A stretch of DNA of 64,000 nt from an uncultured bacterium (GTDB taxonomy: Bacteria > Patescibacteriota > Minisyncoccia > Phycocordibacterales > CAIRYW01). Made by a program: the position numbers and the translations under genes. Shown in pieces: positions 2,191 to 32,855 of the stretch. A model generated the notes under the pieces. That model was not told where the DNA came from. It worked only from the letters and a program-made list of their open reading frames with translations, and made no database searches. The stretch is from positions 1,031 to 65,030 of the forward strand of contig CAIRYW010000027.1 of the NCBI GenBank assembly GCA_903882905.1. Reading direction: 5' to 3'. The number at the start of each line of letters is the position of its first letter. Position 1 is the first letter of the stretch.

Positions 2191-4068
2191 ATGGAAAAAC
2201 CAAATTTCAACAACCCCGAATTTCTCGACAAAAAATATCCAGACCTAGCTGGCTCAAAACCTGTTGAGAGAGCTAGTTTTCAAGCTCGAAGAGACGGAGA
2301 ATCTCCTCATACCAGAGCAGAAAGAGTTGATGCTTACTTAGACAGGCTAGAAAAAGTTTTTAATGCTAAAAATGAAGCAGGAGAAGATCGAGGTTTTGAA
2401 CTTCTGAAACAAATGGTTCTTGATGAATATGTCACCAAACCAGAAGAAATACCAGAATCATACTGGAAACTTCAGGAAAATATTATGCGTGAACGTGGGC
2501 AACTTGGCGACTATCAAAATGCTTCAGAGGAACAAAAAGCAGAAATGAAAAGACAAAACTCCGAAGGAGTGCTTTCTGATCAAAAATCATCTCTTGAACA
2601 GTGGTTAGACTATTTTCATTCCACAGACTCAAATTACATTCCTCGAGAATTAAAATACTGGATTTTTAGAAATGTCATAAAACTTCAAGAATTTGATAAA
2701 GAGAAAAAAGAATTTACAAAAAGATCAAAAGGTACTGTTAAACAATTTCCTGATATTAATTACGAAGCTCTCGGTTATGTTGTTGATGCAGTGATAAAAA
2801 AATATGAAGGAAAACCTCTCGAATGGGAACACGATATCCAACCAGCTGAAAGACAAGTTTTCGAACAACACTTAACTAAAGAAGATTTTTCCAAACTCTA
2901 TGCTTGGGCAAATGAATTAATGAATCCAATTCCTGAGCATCTTCTTCCTGTAAAAGAAGGTAAGTGGAGAAAGTTTGATCAAGACACCGATCCTCATGAA
3001 TTAGTCAAAACTATTCGAGGAAAAGGGACTGGCTGGTGCACAGCCGGTGAGCAAACAGCAAAAACACAATTATCTGCAGGTGATTTTTATGTTTTCTATT
3101 CTTTGGACGACGAAAAAAAACCAACTATCCCAAGAATCGCAATCCGTATGGAAAGTGGAAAAATAGCAGAAGTGCGAGGAGTAGCTTACAAACAAAACCT
3201 CGACCCACACATGGGAAAAGTCTTGGAAGATAAACTCAATGAGTTTCCCGACAAAGATCAATATTTGAAAAAAGAAAGAGATATGCAAAGGCTTACGGAT
3301 ATTGAGAAGAAAACCAAAACAGGAGAAAAACTTTCAAAAACAGAACTGGAATTTATATACGAAATCAACTCTACCATCGAAGGCTTCGGTTATCAAAAAG
3401 ACCCTCGCATTGAAGAAATTAGAAGCAAAAGAAATGTCAAAGAAGATTTGCCAATTCTTTTTGCTTGCGAACCAAGCCAGATTGCCACAAATCAAAATGA
3501 AGTAGATGAAAATACTGTAGCTTACATTGGAAAATGGAACGTAGACATATACAACCAAATCAAACAATATCCAAACATAAAACATATCTACGAATCTTTC
3601 CCAGACAAGAAAATATTTATGATGACACTAGAAACTGACCCAGCAGTAAATTCTCCAGAAACAGCTGAAGCGAAACTAAAAGGAAAATCAATCTATCTAT
3701 CTGACTGGGGAAAAGATATTTTATACAAAACAGAATTCAGTAAGAAAAAAGAAAATTACGAATTGGTAAGGTTTACTGTAGGTGAACTTGGCTTTCCAAA
3801 CGGTGCCACAACAGATGAAATATACGCAAAAGCAGAAACATTAGAATTAGATTTGTGTCCCGCAGAAGTTGGTCCACAACTTCGCTTGTCTTATGAAGGA
3901 AAAGAATGGATGTTGATTGCTATGAAACAAATTACCGACCGCGATGGCTACCCGTGCGTGTTCGACCTGTACGGCGATGGTGCGGGGTTGCCGCTCGATG
4001 GCCGCAATGCCGAGCCAGACTTCAGGTGGCGTTCTGACTTCAAGTTCGTGTTCCTCTCTCGCAAGTAA
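2191..4068 (+). CDS. DGR target (variable) protein. A 625-aa protein with no obvious signal peptide, whose C-terminal about 46 codons are encoded by the variable repeat
   Basis: The 3' end (3927-4065) is a diverged copy of the TR at 4381-4519, differing only at TR adenine positions. The TR is rich in AAC (Asn) codons in the frame of this ORF. Confidence 0.8.
   Translation: MEKPNFNNPEFLDKKYPDLAGSKPVERASFQARRDGESPHTRAERVDAYLDRLEKVFNAKNEAGEDRGFELLKQMVLDEYVTKPEEIPESYWKLQENIMRERGQLGDYQNASEEQKAEMKRQNSEGVLSDQKSSLEQWLDYFHSTDSNYIPRELKYWIFRNVIKLQEFDKEKKEFTKRSKGTVKQFPDINYEALGYVVDAVIKKYEGKPLEWEHDIQPAERQVFEQHLTKEDFSKLYAWANELMNPIPEHLLPVKEGKWRKFDQDTDPHELVKTIRGKGTGWCTAGEQTAKTQLSAGDFYVFYSLDDEKKPTIPRIAIRMESGKIAEVRGVAYKQNLDPHMGKVLEDKLNEFPDKDQYLKKERDMQRLTDIEKKTKTGEKLSKTELEFIYEINSTIEGFGYQKDPRIEEIRSKRNVKEDLPILFACEPSQIATNQNEVDENTVAYIGKWNVDIYNQIKQYPNIKHIYESFPDKKIFMMTLETDPAVNSPETAEAKLKGKSIYLSDWGKDILYKTEFSKKKENYELVRFTVGELGFPNGATTDEIYAKAETLELDLCPAEVGPQLRLSYEGKEWMLIAMKQITDRDGYPCVFDLYGDGAGLPLDGRNAEPDFRWRSDFKFVFLSRK
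3927..4065 (+). repeat. DGR variable repeat (VR), 139 bp
   Basis: Hand alignment to 4381-4519 gives 115/139 identical positions. All 24 differences are at positions where the TR has A. The last 24 nt are identical except one A-to-C. Confidence 0.85.
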
Positions 4069-4380
4069 ACTTTAATTCTTAAACTCTTTGTATTTTTTTG
4101 ATTCTTTAAAACTTTGAATTTTTGATACTTTGAAATTTTTTTTGCTATACTAATTTCGGTTTGGTTAACGAGACGGCTACGGTTTTCTCGAACCTCTCCA
4201 GTTGGCGCATATTGAGAATGCAAATGGCCACGGCTTTTTGCAGAGGATGTGCGTTTTCTTTCAAAAAAAGAAATCAACTTGGTGTGCGATGCTCGAGGAT
4301 TTTCGATTCCAAATAACATACAGCTGAATTTTTGTATTTTTTAAATATTCAAATTGGCAATGGTAAAGATGGCATTGCAT

Positions 4381-4519
4381 ACAAATTACCGACCGCGATG
4401 ACAACCCGAACGTGTTCAACCTGAACAGCGATGATGCGAAGTTGAAACTCAATGGCAACAATGCCAAGCCAGACAACAGGTGGAATTCTGACAACAAGTT
4501 CGTGTTCCTCTCTCGAAAG
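4381..4519 (+). repeat. DGR template repeat (TR), 139 bp, followed by a hairpin (ccgcac ttacaac gtgcgg) and a T-run
   Basis: Invariant partner of the VR. It has 47 adenines, of which 24 are substituted in the VR, and none of the 92 non-A positions differ. It is rich in AAC codons. Confidence 0.85.
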
Positions 4520-4536
4520 TGTTTACTTTTCCGCAC

Positions 4537-4941
4537 TTACAACGTGCGGTTTTTCTTTTCGGGGTTTTCTAGACTTTTTCTCCAGCCACCAAGTATTTTT
4601 CCTATTTCTTCAAGTTTGAGAGCGACTTCCTCATATTGTTTGTGGGAAATGAGTCTGGCTTCCCAAGCTACATGCATTAAAAATTTTAAGGTATCTAAAC
4701 AAAGAATGCATCTGGAGACTTTTTCCGATTTTTTCTCTTTTTCGGTAAAATAGGCTATATATGAAAGTTCCAAAAGATCTAAAAATTTATTTTCAATTCT
4801 CCCGCCAATTGTATAACGTTGGTTTTTTGGAATATGATTAGCAATACTAAGCCAAATCAAATATCCCTCTTTGATTCGTTGGAGAATAGAAGTGTCACCA
4901 CCGAGAGAGAGAGAGAGAGAGAGAGTAGAAGGCTTCGCCAT
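4537..4941 (-). CDS. avd: DGR accessory variability determinant (Avd)-like four-helix-bundle protein (TIGR02436-like)
   Basis: 134 aa. The core …RIKEGYLIWLSIANHIPKNQRYTIGGRIENKFLDLLELSY… resembles the four-helix-bundle / 23S-IVS-protein family typical of Avd. It is encoded antisense to the TR-RT transcript. The N-terminal LSLSLSL is encoded by the (GA)n tract. Confidence 0.6.
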   Translation of the reverse strand: MAKPSTLSLSLSLGGDTSILQRIKEGYLIWLSIANHIPKNQRYTIGGRIENKFLDLLELSYIAYFTEKEKKSEKVSRCILCLDTLKFLMHVAWEARLISHKQYEEVALKLEEIGKILGGWRKSLENPEKKNRTL

Positions 4942-5919
4942 AAATATAAAGATATCATATCTGTAGAAAATTTACTTGCCTCTTGGCGAGAATTTTTGAA
5001 AGATAAGAAAAAGAAAAAAGATGTTGCTGAATTTTCTTTACATTTTTTAGATAATGTTTTTTATTTGCATAATAGTTTGAAGGATAAAACGTATACTCAT
5101 GGTGAATATAAACCGTTCAAAATCTCCGACCCGAAACCTCGTGATATTCACAAAGCTTCGGTTCGCGATAGGTTACTCCACCATGCAATTTACAGAATTC
5201 TATCCCCATATTTTGATGAGAAATTTATTTTTGATTCTTACTCTTGTCGTCTAGGTAAGGGAACGCATAGGGCAATGAATCGTTTTAGATATTTTGCAAG
5301 AAAAGTTTCCAAAAATCATACAAAAACATGCTGGGTACTAAAGTGTGATATCCGTAAATTTTTTGCCAGTATTGACCACCAAATTTTATTTGAAATTTTG
5401 AAGAAAAATATCAGAGACAAAGATATTGTTTGGCTTTTAATACAGGTGATATCAAGTTTTAACACACAATGCAAAACTAATGTCGGTTTACCTCTTGGTA
5501 ATTTAACCTCACAACTTTTGGTAAATATTTATATGAACGAATTTGACCACTTTATGAAAAGACAACTAAAGGTAAAATATTATATTCGTTATGCCGATGA
5601 TTTTGTGATTCTTTCTGAAGATCAAGTTTACCTTGAGAAACTTACCGTACAAATCTATCAATTTTTAGAACAAAAATTAAAACTCTATTTACACCCAAAC
5701 AAAGTGTTTGTTAAAACTTATGCTTCAGGAGTGGATTTCCTTGGATGGGTACACTTTCCAAATCATAGAGTTTTAAGGACAAGTACAAAAAGGAGAATGT
5801 TCAAAAATATTTCAGCTAAAAATTTTTCCTCTTACACAGGACTTTGTGAACACGGAGACGCTCATGAATTATCACAAGAATGTTATAATATTATTAAGAA
5901 AAAAACTGATGAAATTTAA
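4819..5919 (+). CDS. DGR-type reverse transcriptase
   Basis: RT motifs are present, including the YADD box (YIRYADDFVILS). The DGR-specific motif LPLGNLTSQLLVNIY ([I/L]GxxxSQ replaces QGxxxSP) is present. The N-terminus …ENLLASWREFLKDKKK… matches the DGR RT consensus. The size, about 360 aa, is typical. The true start is uncertain, because the ORF-track start overlaps avd on the opposite strand. Confidence 0.85.
   Translation: MVFWNMISNTKPNQISLFDSLENRSVTTERERERESRRLRHKYKDIISVENLLASWREFLKDKKKKKDVAEFSLHFLDNVFYLHNSLKDKTYTHGEYKPFKISDPKPRDIHKASVRDRLLHHAIYRILSPYFDEKFIFDSYSCRLGKGTHRAMNRFRYFARKVSKNHTKTCWVLKCDIRKFFASIDHQILFEILKKNIRDKDIVWLLIQVISSFNTQCKTNVGLPLGNLTSQLLVNIYMNEFDHFMKRQLKVKYYIRYADDFVILSEDQVYLEKLTVQIYQFLEQKLKLYLHPNKVFVKTYASGVDFLGWVHFPNHRVLRTSTKRRMFKNISAKNFSSYTGLCEHGDAHELSQECYNIIKKKTDEI
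4903..4925. repeat. (GA)n dinucleotide microsatellite, about 11.5 units, 23 nt
   Basis: gagagagagagagagagagagag. It lies in the overlap of the predicted 5' ends of avd (minus strand) and the RT ORF (plus strand). Confidence 0.9.
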
Positions 5920-7120
5920 AGTTACATATAAAAATGGCGATAATACAGGTGAAGGGGTTTTTGAAGCTCTTGATAAATTTGAATTGTTTAATGAATTAAA
6001 AAAAGAAGGTCTTTCTCTTATAAAATTTTCAGAAATAAAAAAACATAATTTAAATATCGATATTCCTTTTTTAAGTGCAAATAAAATAAAATTTCATGAC
6101 AGAATTATTTTTGCTAGAAATTTAGGTTCGATGCTCAAAGCAGGACTTCCTCTTTCCAGAGCTCTTCAGGTTATTGAAAAACAGTCCAAGTCGCCCAAGA
6201 TGAAAAGTGTTCTTAACACTCTCATTAAAAATATTGCTGAAGGGAAAACTCTAAATCAATCTCTTTCACTCTTTCCAGAAAATTTTAATTCTTTAGTTAC
6301 ATCAATGGTTAGAGCTGGGGAGGAAAGTGGATCACTTGCCGAATCCTTAAAACTCGTAGCTGATCAAATGGAGAAAAATTATACTTTGATGAAAAAAGTT
6401 AAAGGGGCCATGATCTATCCTGCTATTATCCTTAGTGTCATGGTTGTAATTGGAATTTTGATGCTTGTTTATGTGGTACCGGGTTTGACAGCAACCTTTA
6501 CAGAGCTTCATGCAGATTTACCTTTTTCAACAAAAGTAGTCTTGGGTATAAGTGATTTGCTTCAAAATCATTATATTCTTATGCTTGCTGGTTTAATTGC
6601 AATAATATTTATTTTTATTTCTACGATTCGTACAAAAAAAGGTAAATGGTTTATTGATAGAGCAATTATTAAAATTCCAGTTATTGGTGAAATAGTTGTT
6701 CAAACAAATTCTGCAAGGACCACAAGAACAATGTCTTCACTTCTAGCTTCTGGTGTGGAAGTTGTAAAGTGTGCGCAGATTACCAGAGACGTACTTCAAA
6801 ATTCTTTATATAGAGATGTTATGGAAAAAGTTTCAGTCGCTATCCAAAAAGGGCAACCAATTTCAAAGGTATTTGAAGATTACGAAAGTATTTATCCAGC
6901 TTTTGTTGCGGAAATGGCAAGCGTAGGCGAAGAGACGGGGAAACTCTCTGAAATGTTCGGGCAAACAGCTGAATATTATGAAGAAGAAGTCGAGCAAAAA
7001 ACTAAAGACATGTCGCAGATTGTTGAACCGTTTCTCATGGTAATTATTGGACTTGCAGTAGGTTTCTTTGCTGTTTCTATGATTACTCCAATGTACACAG
7101 TACTTAATAATATTAATTAA
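5846..7120 (+). CDS. pilC: Type IV pilus inner-membrane platform protein PilC (GspF family)
   Basis: Two GspF repeats and 3 TM segments. The probable true start is MKFKV at about 5909, which overlaps the RT stop by a few nt. Confidence 0.85.
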   Translation: MNTETLMNYHKNVIILLRKKLMKFKVTYKNGDNTGEGVFEALDKFELFNELKKEGLSLIKFSEIKKHNLNIDIPFLSANKIKFHDRIIFARNLGSMLKAGLPLSRALQVIEKQSKSPKMKSVLNTLIKNIAEGKTLNQSLSLFPENFNSLVTSMVRAGEESGSLAESLKLVADQMEKNYTLMKKVKGAMIYPAIILSVMVVIGILMLVYVVPGLTATFTELHADLPFSTKVVLGISDLLQNHYILMLAGLIAIIFIFISTIRTKKGKWFIDRAIIKIPVIGEIVVQTNSARTTRTMSSLLASGVEVVKCAQITRDVLQNSLYRDVMEKVSVAIQKGQPISKVFEDYESIYPAFVAEMASVGEETGKLSEMFGQTAEYYEEEVEQKTKDMSQIVEPFLMVIIGLAVGFFAVSMITPMYTVLNNIN

Positions 7121-11743: not shown

Positions 11744-12238
11744 GTGAAAATCTGTTCATTCAACAAAAAAAAGAAAGAGAGAGTTGGCAGAATGAAAAAA
11801 CGTTATCGTGAAGTTATTAAAAGCATCGCGCTGGTTTGTGCATGTCTCTGGTTAGGCAATCTCCTAATCGACACGAGTCTGCATTTGCAAGGAATCAGGT
11901 TCTTCGCTGGGGCTGCTGGAATGGGCTTGCTTGGTACCTTTATCCTGGCGTGTGTGAATGTTGCGCTGGATTACCTGAAGGCAGGCAAGCCAATTGACCT
12001 CCGCTACATGGTGGACGACGGCTACGTCGTGCGCATCCAGTCGGTTGGGCCAATTGAAAGGGATAGGTCCGGCAAAGACATCGTACCTCTGTTGGTTGAG
12101 CTAAAGCCAGGAGTGACGATTTATTGTCGAGTCACTTATACTCAGGATGTTAAATATAAATCTGGTTACTACTATCGTCACTTTAGTAAAGGGGTTTGGA
12201 AAGATACCCTTGTTCCTATCGAGATGAGTAGGAACTGA
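11744..12238 (+). CDS. Hypothetical membrane protein on a GC-rich islet (about 50-55% GC against about 35% background)
   Basis: ORF with 2 predicted TM helices. Its base composition differs markedly from its neighbours. It is flanked by hairpins at 11616 and 12299. Confidence 0.4.
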   Translation: MKICSFNKKKKERVGRMKKRYREVIKSIALVCACLWLGNLLIDTSLHLQGIRFFAGAAGMGLLGTFILACVNVALDYLKAGKPIDLRYMVDDGYVVRIQSVGPIERDRSGKDIVPLLVELKPGVTIYCRVTYTQDVKYKSGYYYRHFSKGVWKDTLVPIEMSRN

Positions 12239-12298
12239 AACAAAATCTCAAAAGCCTAGACACGTCGAATCCGTGAGCTAGGCATTTTTTTATATATA

Positions 12299-12327
12299 TA
12301 ATTCAACTTGGGAGCGAAGCTCCCAAG
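12299..12327. terminator. Bidirectional terminator-like hairpin (aacttgggagc gaa gctcccaagtt)
   Basis: 11-bp perfect stem between convergent genes. Confidence 0.5.
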
Positions 12328-12333
12328 TTGTGT

Positions 12334-12753
12334 TTAATCTTTTAATTCTTCTCTAATTTTTTCGGCAGTGGCAGAAATTTCACCATCATTATATTTTCTC
12401 TGAGGCCAGAGTTTTAATCCATCTTTTTCAAAACGAGGAACAACATGAAAATGAGTGTGAAAAATTACTTGTCCGCCAGCTGGTTCGTTGTTCATACTTA
12501 TGGTTATTCCTTCGGCATCAACTGCATTTTTTATTGCAACGGCTACTTTTTTTGTGACAAGCGAAAGTCTGGCGAGTGTTTCATCCGGGGTTGTATAAAT
12601 ATTTTCAAAATGATCTTTGGGAATTACAAGAGCGTGTCCTGTATTTACAGGATTAATATCCAAAAATGCCAAAGACCAATCGTCCTCGTAGATTTTTTCT
12701 GAAGGTATCTCTCCTGTAATTATTTTGCAAAAAATGCAATCTTTTTCGTTCAT
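12334..12753 (-). CDS. HIT-family (histidine triad) nucleotide hydrolase
   Basis: HTHFHVVPR triad. The likely start is the internal MNEKDCIFCKI…. The N-terminal extension in the ORF track overlaps the recJ start and is probably not translated. Confidence 0.75.
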   Translation of the reverse strand: MNEKDCIFCKIITGEIPSEKIYEDDWSLAFLDINPVNTGHALVIPKDHFENIYTTPDETLARLSLVTKKVAVAIKNAVDAEGITISMNNEPAGGQVIFHTHFHVVPRFEKDGLKLWPQRKYNDGEISATAEKIREELKD

Positions 12754-12785
12754 GTCTACATTATACCAGATGCTATAATTGGCGA

Positions 12786-14516
12786 ATGAAGAAAGAGTAT
12801 TCCGTAAGGAGAGAATTAACACAGGCCGAATCTGATAGTTTTGCTGGAATTTCATCCCTTTTGTCTCATTTGATGTTTCATAGAGGGATTAGTCCTGCTC
12901 AAGCCGGTTTGTTTTTAGAGCCTTCATTTTTGGAAGAAATTCACGATCCGTTCCTTTTGCATGATATGAAAAAAGCAGTAGAAAGGATTATTAAAGCTAT
13001 AAAAGGGAATGAAAAAATTTGTATATATTCAGACTATGACGCAGATGGACTTTCTGGGGCAACAATTTTTCACGATTTTTTTAAAAAAATAAATTTTAGT
13101 AATTTCATCAATCATATTCCAAATAGAAATGAAGAAGGTTTTGGATTACATAAAGATTCAATTGAGGAAATTGCAAAACAGGGTGTGAATTTGATAATTA
13201 CTGTTGATTGCGGAATTGGAGACGTCGAGGAAGCAAAATTCGCAAAAGGTCTCGGAGTAGATTTAATTATTACTGATCATCACGAGCCTGACAAAATTTT
13301 ACCTGATGCATTCGCAATCGTAAATCCAAAAATTTCTCCAAAGTATCCAGAGAAAATGCTCTGTGGAGCAGCTGTTGCTTGGAAAGTTGTTTGTGCAATT
13401 ATTAAAAAAGGAACCTGCCTGCCGGCAGGCAGGTTTGAGTTGCCTCTAGGATTTGAAAAGTGGATTATGGATGTTGTTGGGATCGCAACTCTTTCGGATA
13501 TGGTTCCACTTGTTGGAGAAAATAGAGTCTTGGCAAAATACGGGATGCTCGTTTTGCGAAAGAGCAAAAGAATCGGAATTCAGAAATTGCTTAGGACTTT
13601 AAAGATTGAAATGAAAAACTTAACTGAAGATGACATTGGATTTATGATAACTCCAAGAATAAACGCAGCATCAAGGATGGGAAAATCTATTGATGCGTTT
13701 CACTTACTTACAACAACTTCAGAAGATGAGGCAAAAGAAATTGTTACAGAACTTGAAAAAATAAATAATGAAAGAAAAATAATCAGTGCTCATCTTTCAA
13801 AGGAAGTGCACAAAATGATGGAAGCAAAATATTCTCCATATTTTTCTAACAAAGTTATTGTAGTTGGAAGTCCAGCATGGAAGCCATCTATTCTTGGAAT
13901 TGTTGCAGGTACTCTTGTTGAAAAAGAAAACAAACCAGTTTTTCTTTGGGGCAAAGAAATGGTGACAGAAAAAATTAAAGGTTCTTGTCGAGCGCCACAA
14001 GGAGTAAGTGTCAAAGCAATTATGGAAAATGTAACTGAAGGAATAATCACGGACTTTGGTGGGCACCATATGGCTGGGGGATTTTCACTTTCAAATGAAA
14101 CAGTGCATTTGTTCGAAGATGAAATTGAGAAAGCATACGAAAAATCCGAAAGTGAAACAAGGGAAATCCCAATTACTTTTGTTGATAGAGAAATTGATGT
14201 GGAGCAAGTTGATTTGAGATTGGTAAATGAAATAGAAAAACTTTCTCCTTTTGGTATGGCGAACGAAAAACCTTTGTTTATTTTTAGCGGAGGAGTTTTT
14301 GAAAAGGTAGATTTTTTTGGAAAAGAAAAGAAACATCTAAAAATTTCTTTGAAAGGAAAAAGTGGAAAAACTATAGAAGCAATTTCTTTTTTTACACCAG
14401 AAGATTTGATAAAAAAATCTGAACAAGGAAAAATTTTAAGAGTTGTAGGAAATGTTGAGAAATCTTTTTTTGGTTGGCCAAAGGCAAGAATAAGAATCAT
14501 CGATATTTTAAACTGA
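12786..14516 (+). CDS. recJ: Single-stranded-DNA-specific exonuclease RecJ
   Basis: DHH domain (IITDHHEP), DHHA1 (GGHHMAGG), C-terminal OB region. 576 aa. Confidence 0.85.
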   Translation: MKKEYSVRRELTQAESDSFAGISSLLSHLMFHRGISPAQAGLFLEPSFLEEIHDPFLLHDMKKAVERIIKAIKGNEKICIYSDYDADGLSGATIFHDFFKKINFSNFINHIPNRNEEGFGLHKDSIEEIAKQGVNLIITVDCGIGDVEEAKFAKGLGVDLIITDHHEPDKILPDAFAIVNPKISPKYPEKMLCGAAVAWKVVCAIIKKGTCLPAGRFELPLGFEKWIMDVVGIATLSDMVPLVGENRVLAKYGMLVLRKSKRIGIQKLLRTLKIEMKNLTEDDIGFMITPRINAASRMGKSIDAFHLLTTTSEDEAKEIVTELEKINNERKIISAHLSKEVHKMMEAKYSPYFSNKVIVVGSPAWKPSILGIVAGTLVEKENKPVFLWGKEMVTEKIKGSCRAPQGVSVKAIMENVTEGIITDFGGHHMAGGFSLSNETVHLFEDEIEKAYEKSESETREIPITFVDREIDVEQVDLRLVNEIEKLSPFGMANEKPLFIFSGGVFEKVDFFGKEKKHLKISLKGKSGKTIEAISFFTPEDLIKKSEQGKILRVVGNVEKSFFGWPKARIRIIDILN

Positions 14517-14570
14517 ATCGATTGACATATTTTCCTTCAAGCACATAATTTATTCAGGAGGTTCCATTTC

Positions 14571-14993
14571 ATGATTGACGATATTGACGAGTTTTTTCGC
14601 TTGTCCTTCACCGACCAGCTTTCTCTTGCTATGGATGATGACTATCCTTGTCCTTGGGATAAGATAGAGATTTCCTCAGGGAGCATGTCGAAGGAGGATA
14701 TTTTAAGTCTCAGAAGGGTAGGAGGAACTGATGACTTAATTTTGAATCGCTTGGTAAAAATGTCTATGCTCGCTGAAGGAAATTTGACGATTTATAGGGA
14801 GTGTTGCGAGAAAGGCAAAGACCAAGCAAGCTCAATTGAGTTAGACATTTTGGAGAATCTAGTTGTTTTGAGAATAAGAGAACTCTTCCCAAAGAAGGGG
14901 ATCTCGCTCAGTGAGAAGTATCACTTTAGGGTGAAAAAATATTCTCTGGAAATATTCAAAAAATCTCCAACAGTTTCAACCCCGCCGAAGTAA
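14571..14993 (+). CDS. Hypothetical protein (GC-richer ORF, no recognisable domain)
   Basis: 140-aa ORF with a possible RBS. Its composition is higher in GC than its neighbours. Confidence 0.35.
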   Translation: MIDDIDEFFRLSFTDQLSLAMDDDYPCPWDKIEISSGSMSKEDILSLRRVGGTDDLILNRLVKMSMLAEGNLTIYRECCEKGKDQASSIELDILENLVVLRIRELFPKKGISLSEKYHFRVKKYSLEIFKKSPTVSTPPK

Positions 14994-32310: not shown

Positions 32311-32399
32311 AAACCACTAATCACTATCCATTACACCCGCACACTATCTACTATATTCAATCCATTGCTTTTATCTGTGGGGGGGGGTAAAATCTAACT

Positions 32400-32855
32400 A
32401 TGTTAAAAAACTTTTTCTTAGACTGGAAGGGAAAATTATTATTAATTTGTTTACTAGGTATTGGAGGATCAGTTTTATATTTTTCAGATACTCAAATTTC
32501 TAATGCCCAAGCAATGGGAGGTGGGGGATATAGTTGTCCTCCTCCCACTGTTGGTTGGAATGGGACATGTATTTGTCCTGTGGGGGCTGATGCAGCACTT
32601 CAAAAAAGATGCGACCAAGCTCTTCAGGGTAATAAAACTATTGATGCACCCACAAAAAGAATTCCTATCACATCTATAGCTCCTACTTTAAAATCACAAT
32701 GGAGTTATAACGTAAGTTTTGATGCCAATGATTTTAAAGCTGCCCCAACTGATGCACATGGTAATCCTTATGGTTCTAGCCGTATTCCCTCATTGAGTAA
32801 TGTTATAGATTTTAAGAATCTAACGATCGGTATTGTTGTGGGAGTTAAATTTTAA
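32400..32855 (+). CDS. Hypothetical secreted/membrane-anchored small protein
   Basis: N-terminal hydrophobic segment LLLICLLGIGGSVLYF. Cys-containing. 151 aa. Confidence 0.4.
   Translation: MLKNFFLDWKGKLLLICLLGIGGSVLYFSDTQISNAQAMGGGGYSCPPPTVGWNGTCICPVGADAALQKRCDQALQGNKTIDAPTKRIPITSIAPTLKSQWSYNVSFDANDFKAAPTDAHGNPYGSSRIPSLSNVIDFKNLTIGIVVGVKF

Follow-up and report, generated by a model that had tools for sequence, protein, structure and literature searches.

A complete diversity-generating retroelement (DGR) is present in a stretch of 64,000 nucleotides from an uncultured bacterium of the Patescibacteriota (assembly GCA_903882905.1, contig CAIRYW010000027.1). We call this whole stretch the window, and all positions are given in it. 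A complete DGR had been proposed in the initial annotation of the window, and all four of its parts, i.e., a target gene ending in a variable repeat (VR), a template repeat (TR), a gene for the accessory variability determinant (Avd) and a DGR-type reverse transcriptase (RT), are identified here (Table 1). We are highly confident that the locus is a genuine and complete chromosomal DGR of the clade found in the candidate phyla radiation (CPR), with the order target/VR - TR - (avd) - RT and with the working proposed below. It is an ordinary member of this clade, whose abundance in CPR bacteria has been documented before. The element thus adds one example, and the parts worth following are a clade-wide leader RNA in front of the TR and a clade-wide repeat at the avd/RT junction.

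The repeats, the proteins and the clade

The machine alignment of the VR with the TR runs without gaps over 139 nt and contains 24 mismatches, all of which are at adenines of the TR. Thus, 24 of the 47 adenines are changed, and none of the 92 other positions. A hand count had given identical numbers earlier, and the realignment by machine that was then recommended has no mismatch at any non-A position of the TR. For 24 mismatches placed at random, the probability that all would be on A is 3.0e-14. The substitutions are A>G in 12 cases, A>T in 7 and A>C in 5. In the frame of the 625-aa open reading frame (ORF) of the target, 13 mismatches are at codon position 1, 9 at position 2 and 2 at position 3, so that 22 of the 24 are at the first two positions, a distribution by which DGRs are recognised. 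Sixteen codons now differ, and 15 amino acids are changed. Read in the target frame, the TR is QITDRDDNPNVFNLNSDDAKLKLNGNNAKPDNRWNSDNKFVFLSRK, with 7 AAC and 3 AAT codons, and it is indeed rich in AAC as had been remarked. The GC content is 59.7% in the VR, 47.5% in the TR and 35.5% in the window. Since there are no differences at non-A positions, we favor recent homing. At the 3' ends, where the initiation of mutagenic homing sites (IMH and IMH*) are expected, the last 21 nt are the same save for A4516 in the TR and C4062 in the VR, 4 nt from the end. Here a difference between IMH and IMH* and ordinary A-mutagenesis would look alike in sequence. The last 24 nt had been described as conserved, and this has to be amended, as one of the 24 mismatches (the same A4516/C4062) is located there. 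Neither strand of the 64-kb window contains a further TR-like copy or a second target.

The RT contains an RVT_1 domain (E 4e-26), and its closest match in the PDB is bRT, the RT of Bordetella phage BPP-1 (8ub7; E 4e-41). This match is about 20 orders of magnitude ahead of the next-best ones, which are group II intron-type RTs at about 1e-21 (one deposited as 'Retron-type reverse transcriptase'). The alignment with bRT spans residues 38-331, including the IGxxxSQ and YxDD motifs. In it LPLGNLTSQLLVNIY is aligned with IPIGSLTSQLFANVY (LPLGNLTSQ vs IPIGSLTSQ), and YADD is intact. Both motifs on which the initial annotation had relied, LGNLTSQ and YADD, are therefore present, and because of these motifs and the best PDB match we class the RT as DGR-type. 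The protein is identical to database protein P0121, which is on record from one contig only (70,557 bp). Exact-protein look-ups of Avd and RT returned no record. The Avd-like gene that had been noticed between TR and RT is a reverse-strand ORF, and its product is matched by Pfam bAvd (PF22296; E 1.2e-14, 55.1 bits vs a cut-off of 40) and by PHROG 3206, 'Avd protein of DGR' (E 5e-21).

The first survey of CPR DGRs is reportedly that of Paul et al. in 2017. To place the window among such elements we use 34 loci from GTDB species representatives, nearly all of them metagenome-assembled genomes of Patescibacteria, with RTs 49-71% identical (best segment) to the one here. Against the Patescibacteria RTs of GTDB the identity is 57-69%. 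In all 30 of these related loci with a detectable Avd homolog, Avd is directly upstream of the RT and on the opposite strand. A TR/VR pair with A-dominated mismatches is found in 23 relatives, and these have a common gene order: target/VR, a spacer of 260-380 nt, TR, avd (reverse) and RT. The window, likewise from a member of the Patescibacteria, shares the core of this order, TR - avd (reverse) - RT. It was called unusual that avd is on the opposite strand, but this is the published layout 'B3, TR-(avd)-RT', and since B3 makes up 90% of CPR DGRs (Wu et al. 2018, PMC5758913), the reversed avd is not an oddity. An invertible avd segment was also considered and rejected, since convincing inverted repeats on its flanks are lacking and avd is invariably reversed in the clade. 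In the DGR of Ca. Paceibacter (RT P0167; L041-L046) TR and RT are on one strand and the target, a 626-aa member of the family described below, is on the other, with its 5' end beside the TR leader. Thus, the orientation of the target is not fixed within the clade.

The target has no sequence match in Pfam, NCBIfam, PHROG, PADLOC or the PDB, even when a 101-sequence profile is used or 52 homologs are scanned singly. A hydrophobic segment is absent (the maximum in a Kyte-Doolittle(19) scan is 0.31), as is a membrane segment and, as had been stated, a signal peptide. The AlphaFold2 model has a pLDDT of 90.6. Structure prediction of the C-terminus, which had been suggested as a check for a fold of the C-type-lectin (CLec) or formylglycine-generating enzyme (FGE) kind, places the VR within such a CLec/FGE-like fold, and the domain is modelled as a divergent C-type lectin. 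On this model it would be a very divergent and compact CLec variant. The N-terminal 435 residues contain an invariant GTGWCTAG motif, and their structural matches are only weak and GNAT-like. There are 3,405 homologs of the target, all from CPR/Patescibacteria genomes or metagenomes and all named hypothetical. In their C-termini the scaffold IAMKQI.DR.G.P.VF.L...L.L....A.P...W.....FVF..RK is kept, with hypervariable positions between its residues, so that the homologs form a large DGR target family. Two of them are closest to the target (74-75% identity); their genomic surroundings are unrelated, and neither an RT nor a TR is found within 8 kb. The final 140 nt of these two genes are nevertheless A-poor with 56-59% GC, as against about 38-40% for the whole gene, and we read this as the trace of a diversifying DGR that is either distant or no longer there. 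A 123-aa ORF at 3948-4319 on the reverse strand, which is called in other assemblies, overlaps the VR, the promoter and the leader RNA and is almost certainly a spurious gene call.

Table 1. Features of the DGR locus, in window positions
Feature	Position	Strand	Basis
Target gene, 625 aa, soluble	2191..4068	+	ORF list; CPR-only family
C-terminal domain of target (residues 436-625), carrying VR; modelled divergent C-type-lectin-like fold	3496..4065	+	Structure model
VR	3927..4065	+	Last 46 codons of target; 24/24 TR mismatches at TR adenines
Predicted TR RNA promoter: -35 TTGATA (4122-4127), 18-nt spacer, TG-extended -10 TATACT (4146-4151)	4122..4151	+	Promoter scan
Structured 5' leader of TR RNA, about 230 nt	4152..4382	+	Covariation, minimum free energy fold
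Leader helix H1	4169-4190	+	RNAalifold
Leader helix H2	4219-4242	+	RNAalifold
Leader helix H3, 12 bp	4282-4293 paired with 4371-4382	+	RNAalifold
Leader helix H4	4297-4309	+	RNAalifold
Leader helix H5	4323-4327 paired with 4354-4358	+	RNAalifold
TR	4381..4519	+	Machine alignment to VR
GC hairpin CCGCAC-7 nt-GTGCGG and T-run, intrinsic-terminator-like	4531..4554	+	Terminator scan
avd, 134 aa, accessory variability determinant, opposite strand to RT	4537..4941	-	Pfam and PHROG
(GA)11.5 repeat in overlapping 5' coding ends of avd (LSLSLSL) and RT (ERERERE)	4903..4925	.	Repeat scan
DGR reverse transcriptase, 361 aa from ATG 4834 (frame open from 4819)	4834..5919	+	RVT_1 E 4e-26; bRT match; motifs

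The template RNA

The TR appears to be in a small transcription unit of its own. The predicted promoter has 10 of 12 consensus matches together with the TG extension, and a TGnTAnAAT-like box is found at the same alignment column in most of 24 related spacers. When the VR-TR spacers of these 24 loci are aligned, they have a shared order, with CTTRG-type repeats after the stop codon, usually a terminator of the target, the TGnTAnAAT box and then about 230 nt that are conserved as far as the TR. The window has short direct repeats (TCTTTAAAACTTTGAATTTTT-like, at a spacing of 8-26 nt) at 4077-4139, right after the target stop codon; the CTTRG-type repeats of the relatives are at the equivalent place, before the target terminator. 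At the other end, a hairpin followed by T-rich sequence is located directly 3' of the TR in 24 of the 24 loci inspected. The hairpins, which were checked sequence by sequence in the relatives, differ in their sequences. Just 3' of the TR, an 'Avd-binding stem-loop' has been predicted for 207 of 278 DGRs, CPR elements included, in a study whose analysis on the 5' side was limited to the 40 nt before the TR (Handa et al. 2024 preprint). Because the TG-extended -10 promoter is upstream and the terminator-like hairpin comes after the TR, the TR RNA looks like a separate unit. It had been assumed that avd is antisense to a joint TR-RT RNA, and with a predicted promoter before the leader and a terminator-like hairpin after the TR this is probably not the case.

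The leader in front of the TR is a structured RNA. RNAalifold on 22 leaders gives 39 pairs, 33 of which have compensatory changes, and the 12-bp helix H3 ends in the first two bases of the TR. In the alignment, 93.4% of cells are paired, vs 39-48% when the partners are slid by 1-3 columns, and there are 248 double-change cells vs 45-77 in the slid controls. None of 500 shuffles reached the observed values. A covariance model of the TR-proximal three-way junction, built from 22 sequences, finds 43 further DGR loci outside the training set at 55-95 bits, and has a single match in the window (4275-4386). The covariation of the leader also holds in these 43 independent loci. In addition, the single-sequence minimum free energy (MFE) fold of 4152-4390 recovers H1-H4 (z = -3.3). 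This fold has an extra helix around H2, 4199-4212 with 4245-4253 (alignment columns about 72-84 with 150-160), which RNAalifold missed owing to the alignment. It covaries by eye in the relatives (GCGCATA/ATGTGCG, CATACA/TGTATG, CGCGCG/CGCGCG and CATGAA/TTCATG).

Rfam 15, which includes RT-1 to RT-19, gives no gathering-level hits in the whole window, and between 4000 and 5000 only chance-level hits to unrelated families are obtained at E <= 10. At this level the 64-kb window has no tRNA, rRNA or riboswitch. We found no published description of the leader, the TR-proximal terminator or the junction repeat of CPR DGRs in the accessible literature. All three are clade-wide features of these elements.

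The junction repeat and the state of the element

The (GA)11.5 tract at the avd/RT junction is the sole dinucleotide repeat of at least 6 units in the 64 kb. The avd gene starts at ATG 4941 and reads MAKPSTLSLSLSLGGD, the RT reads TTERERERESRRLRH from ATG 4834, and both are in frame through the repeat. For a survey of the relatives, 31 loci were chosen by RT similarity alone and scored within 120 nt upstream of the RT core. A junction repeat is found in 29 of them, i.e., G8-13 in 24, (GT)13-15 in 2, (GA)11.5 in 2 and a GA/G/GA composite in 1. The remaining 289 kb of these loci have no comparable repeat, and the G-rich strand is always the RT-sense strand. A DNA-only metagenome search with ACTGGYAAAAG-N3-7-G8 returned 120 loci, which are mostly avd/RT junctions. 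About 30 of the contigs found in this way have no detectable RT or Avd (L069, L081, L050/L107, L062/L101, L063/L075/L078), and among them is one near-identical pair with G10 vs G9.

Among the poly-G junctions, 80 non-redundant ones have a TAnnnT hexamer (TAATAT, TACTAT, TAGACT and others) right behind the tract. In 29 of the 80 the in-frame ATG of the RT is at a distance of 13 nt from the tract, close to the expected start of transcription. For this reason poly-G has the appearance of a spacer within a leaderless promoter of the RT. The tracts are 8-13 long, mostly 9-10. Among 17 pairs with near-identical flanks, 15 have equal tract lengths; in the other 2, whose 500-nt flanks are 100% identical, the lengths are one G apart, and here a homopolymer assembly error is possible. 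In the (GA)n subclade the number of N-terminal ER repeats varies among close RT homologs. The relative L007 also has (GA)11.5, but its avd and RT are both out of frame with the upstream ATGs. In the six contigs compared, of 13 carrying RT P0167, the repeat length is identical throughout; since this repeat has just 4 GA units, the comparison is uninformative on length polymorphism.

Contingency loci and phase-variable promoters, e.g., the poly-G tracts of Campylobacter and Neisseria, are switched by repeats of this kind. They are defined by a hypermutable repeat, either within the spacer of a promoter or in the 5' part of the coding sequence, and both placements are found at the junctions described here. 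We suggest that phase-variable control of the mutagenesis machinery by the junction repeat is plausible, though unproven. A literature search found no paper linking DGRs with such repeats. If the junction repeat does act as a switch, hypermutation would be gated by phase variation, and this would account for how a cell with a reduced genome keeps down the cost of a mutagenic RT. A wider proposal combines both parts. The CPR DGR machinery would be under stochastic, heritable on/off or rheostat control by the slippery avd/RT repeat, with poly-G as the spacer of a leaderless RT promoter in most members and (GA)n in both frames in the subclade of the window, so that one slippage would toggle Avd and RT together. 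In addition, the template RNA would be small and autonomous, with a previously undescribed 5' domain, and its terminal helix would set the stop of cDNA synthesis. We advance this proposal tentatively, with rather more doubt than belief.

Alternatively, the junction repeat may be no switch. It could be a constitutive promoter spacer, a 5'-UTR, a non-B-DNA element or a tolerated mutational by-product, kept near an optimal length, and we give this close to an even chance. The TAnnnT that directly follows the tract in the 80 poly-G junctions, with the ATG at 13 nt in 29 of them, is as expected for a fixed leaderless promoter. The lengths are tightly clustered at 9-10, 15 of the 17 near-identical pairs are equal, and slippage alone does not require the G-rich strand to be always the RT-sense one. 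However, (G)n, (GT)n and (GA)n occupy one and the same position, which argues against a sequence-specific role. Two pairs with identical 500-nt flanks differ in tract length alone, and the neighbouring 289 kb have nothing comparable. In the (GA)n subclade, moreover, the repeat is inside both ORFs, and in-frame and out-of-frame states are both natural. A pairing of the (GA)n tract with CCTCTCTC at the 3' end of the TR was tried as another role and dropped, as L007 has (GA)11.5 but no CTCTCTC at the end of its TR.

The window has a further tract of this type away from the DGR. At 32379-32402 the sole G/C homopolymer of at least 8 in the window, a G9, is directly followed by TAAAAT and, after 6 nt, by the ATG of an ORF (32400-32855) for a 151-aa protein with a hydrophobic N-terminus and no PADLOC match. 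This layout of G9, -10 box and start is as at the RT genes of the poly-G-type relatives. It is a candidate for a second slippage-controlled leaderless promoter in the genome.

It is also conceivable that the element is a relic or was silenced recently, i.e., that all parts are there and it is not diversifying now, e.g., because a slippery repeat decides on the reading frames of RT and avd or because the host is a clonal population. We consider this unlikely. The VR is identical in all assemblies carrying the target, and the 90% identity cluster of the target has a single member; the four other assemblies concerned are, however, possibly from the same sample and not independent. The RT has no start codon beside its conserved N-terminus (bRT residue 4 corresponds to ORF residue 38), so it must initiate at ATG 4834 and read through the (GA) repeat, the same repeat with which avd and RT are out of frame in the close relative L007. 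These points weigh against the main reading, and so do two others: the avd product scores 74.4 bits with NCBIfam NF033474 (DivGenRetAVD), just below the cut-off of 80, and the promoter, terminator and transcript ends of the TR RNA are predictions. On the other side, none of the 92 non-A positions differs between TR and VR, avd and RT are both intact ORFs that stay in frame across the repeat, and the catalytic YADD is intact. That the RT is instead a retron, group II intron or defence RT, with TR and VR an unrelated duplication, is effectively refuted and extremely improbable: the generic RVT_1 domain does match group II intron and defence RT (DRT) models, below their cut-offs, but among solved structures bRT is ahead by about 20 orders of magnitude, the motif specific to DGRs is there, Avd adjoins, the mismatches are A-only (P 3e-14) and the cassette is kept in at least 23 relatives.

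Genomic setting, proposed working and comparison with known systems

The DGR cassette (2191-5919) is located between a gene for a PilB-type ATPase (394-2133) and one for a PilC-type platform protein (about 5909-7120), which is followed by pseudopilin-like genes. In the relative L079 pilB and pilC are adjacent (12069-14723), and the DGR is 9 kb away. This suggests that the cassette of the window was inserted into a pilus operon. A conserved linkage to type IV pili was considered and rejected, as the closest target homologs are in unrelated contexts and pilB is nearby in a few loci only. Since the contexts of the target family vary and the DGR of L079 is 9 kb from pilB/pilC, the linkage is probably incidental. 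Three other assemblies of the DGR locus (L004, L005 and L006) are 100% identical to the window. All of them stop at exactly 4811, a position within avd from which the (GA)n tract is 92 nt away; a last read in common, a gap in coverage or a structural variant may account for this.

We propose that the element works as follows. A non-coding RNA of about 400 nt, made up of the leader of about 230 nt, the 139-nt TR and the 3' hairpin with its U-run, would be transcribed from its own TG-extended -10 promoter at about 4122-4151 and would extend from about 4158 to about 4555. The RT (4834-5919), together with Avd (4537-4941), would copy the TR into cDNA and misincorporate opposite the template adenines. 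This cDNA would replace the homologous VR (3927-4065) and recode up to about 20 codons, given the 47 adenines of the TR. The recoded codons would be at the tip of the C-type-lectin-like C-terminal domain of the 625-aa cytoplasmic protein. Potentially, the 12-bp helix H3, which abuts the first base of the TR, marks the point where cDNA synthesis stops. The leader and the 3' hairpin may stand in for the RNA segments that flank the TR of BPP-1, and the hairpin may correspond to the Avd-binding or terminator element. Slippage in (GA)11.5, which is in frame in avd and RT, could switch both genes off and on. That retrohoming takes place at this locus is inferred from the established biology of DGRs, i.e., that of BPP-1.

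Compared with other CPR DGRs, the window has the same gene order and the same reversed avd, and nothing essential is different, so that it is a member of this group (Wu et al. 2018, PMC5758913; Roux et al. 2021, PMC8144416). The element also corresponds to CPR DGR clade 2, the targets of which have no membrane segment or known domain (Roux et al. 2021, PMC8144416), and the same is true of the target here. With the CLec variable proteins of DGRs, such as Treponema TvpA (2y3c) and the FGE-like domains, the C-terminal domain of the target has no detectable sequence similarity, and the structural comparison gives Z <= 6.8. The cytoplasmic 'antigen sensor' DGR proteins of multicellular bacteria likewise have no export signals, and like the target they combine a module that is conserved, at the N-terminus, with a binding domain that is hypervariable, at the C-terminus (Dore et al. 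2024, PMC10907252). By this analogy, a cytoplasmic sensor role for the target can be conjectured. With more than 3,400 members, a cytoplasmic location and the invariant GTGWCTAG, the target family is among the largest uncharacterised families of DGR targets, and it is a direct handle on what CPR cells diversify intracellularly.

The junction repeats can be compared with the contingency loci of Campylobacter and Neisseria. In both cases long G, GT or GA tracts are in the promoter spacer by the -10 box or in the 5' coding region, and there are occasional length differences between otherwise identical sequences. Contingency loci control surface antigens, whereas the junction tracts would control a mutagenesis machine, with a fixed strand polarity and with switching that is putative.

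The A-specific pattern of transfer from TR to VR is common to the window and the DGR of Bordetella phage BPP-1 (mtd-avd-TR-brt; structure 8ub7), and so are an Avd partner, a variable domain of the CLec type and a stem-loop just 3' of the TR. The 4531-4554 hairpin is also equivalent in position to the 'Avd-binding stem-loop' of DGRs (Handa et al. 2024 preprint). The target in BPP-1 is the phage tail fibre, whereas that in the window is cytoplasmic, and the avd of BPP-1 is upstream and on the same strand, whereas that of the window is on the strand opposite to the RT. The RNA parts are also placed differently. In BPP-1 the essential RNA is mainly 3' of the TR, in the Sp region with the Rfam RT-10 motif, which is the BPP-1 TR-RT spacer (Weinberg et al. 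2017), whereas the large conserved RNA domain of the window is 5' of the TR. For the 'cPRT stop' of BPP-1 a pairing of upstream with downstream sequence has been proposed, whereas the helix at the 5' border of the TR in the window uses upstream sequence alone. The only well-studied DGR RNA, that of BPP-1, thus has its main conserved domain on the other side of the TR, and the covariation-supported RNA domain attached to the TR here provides a concrete and testable definition of the DGR RNA of CPR bacteria.

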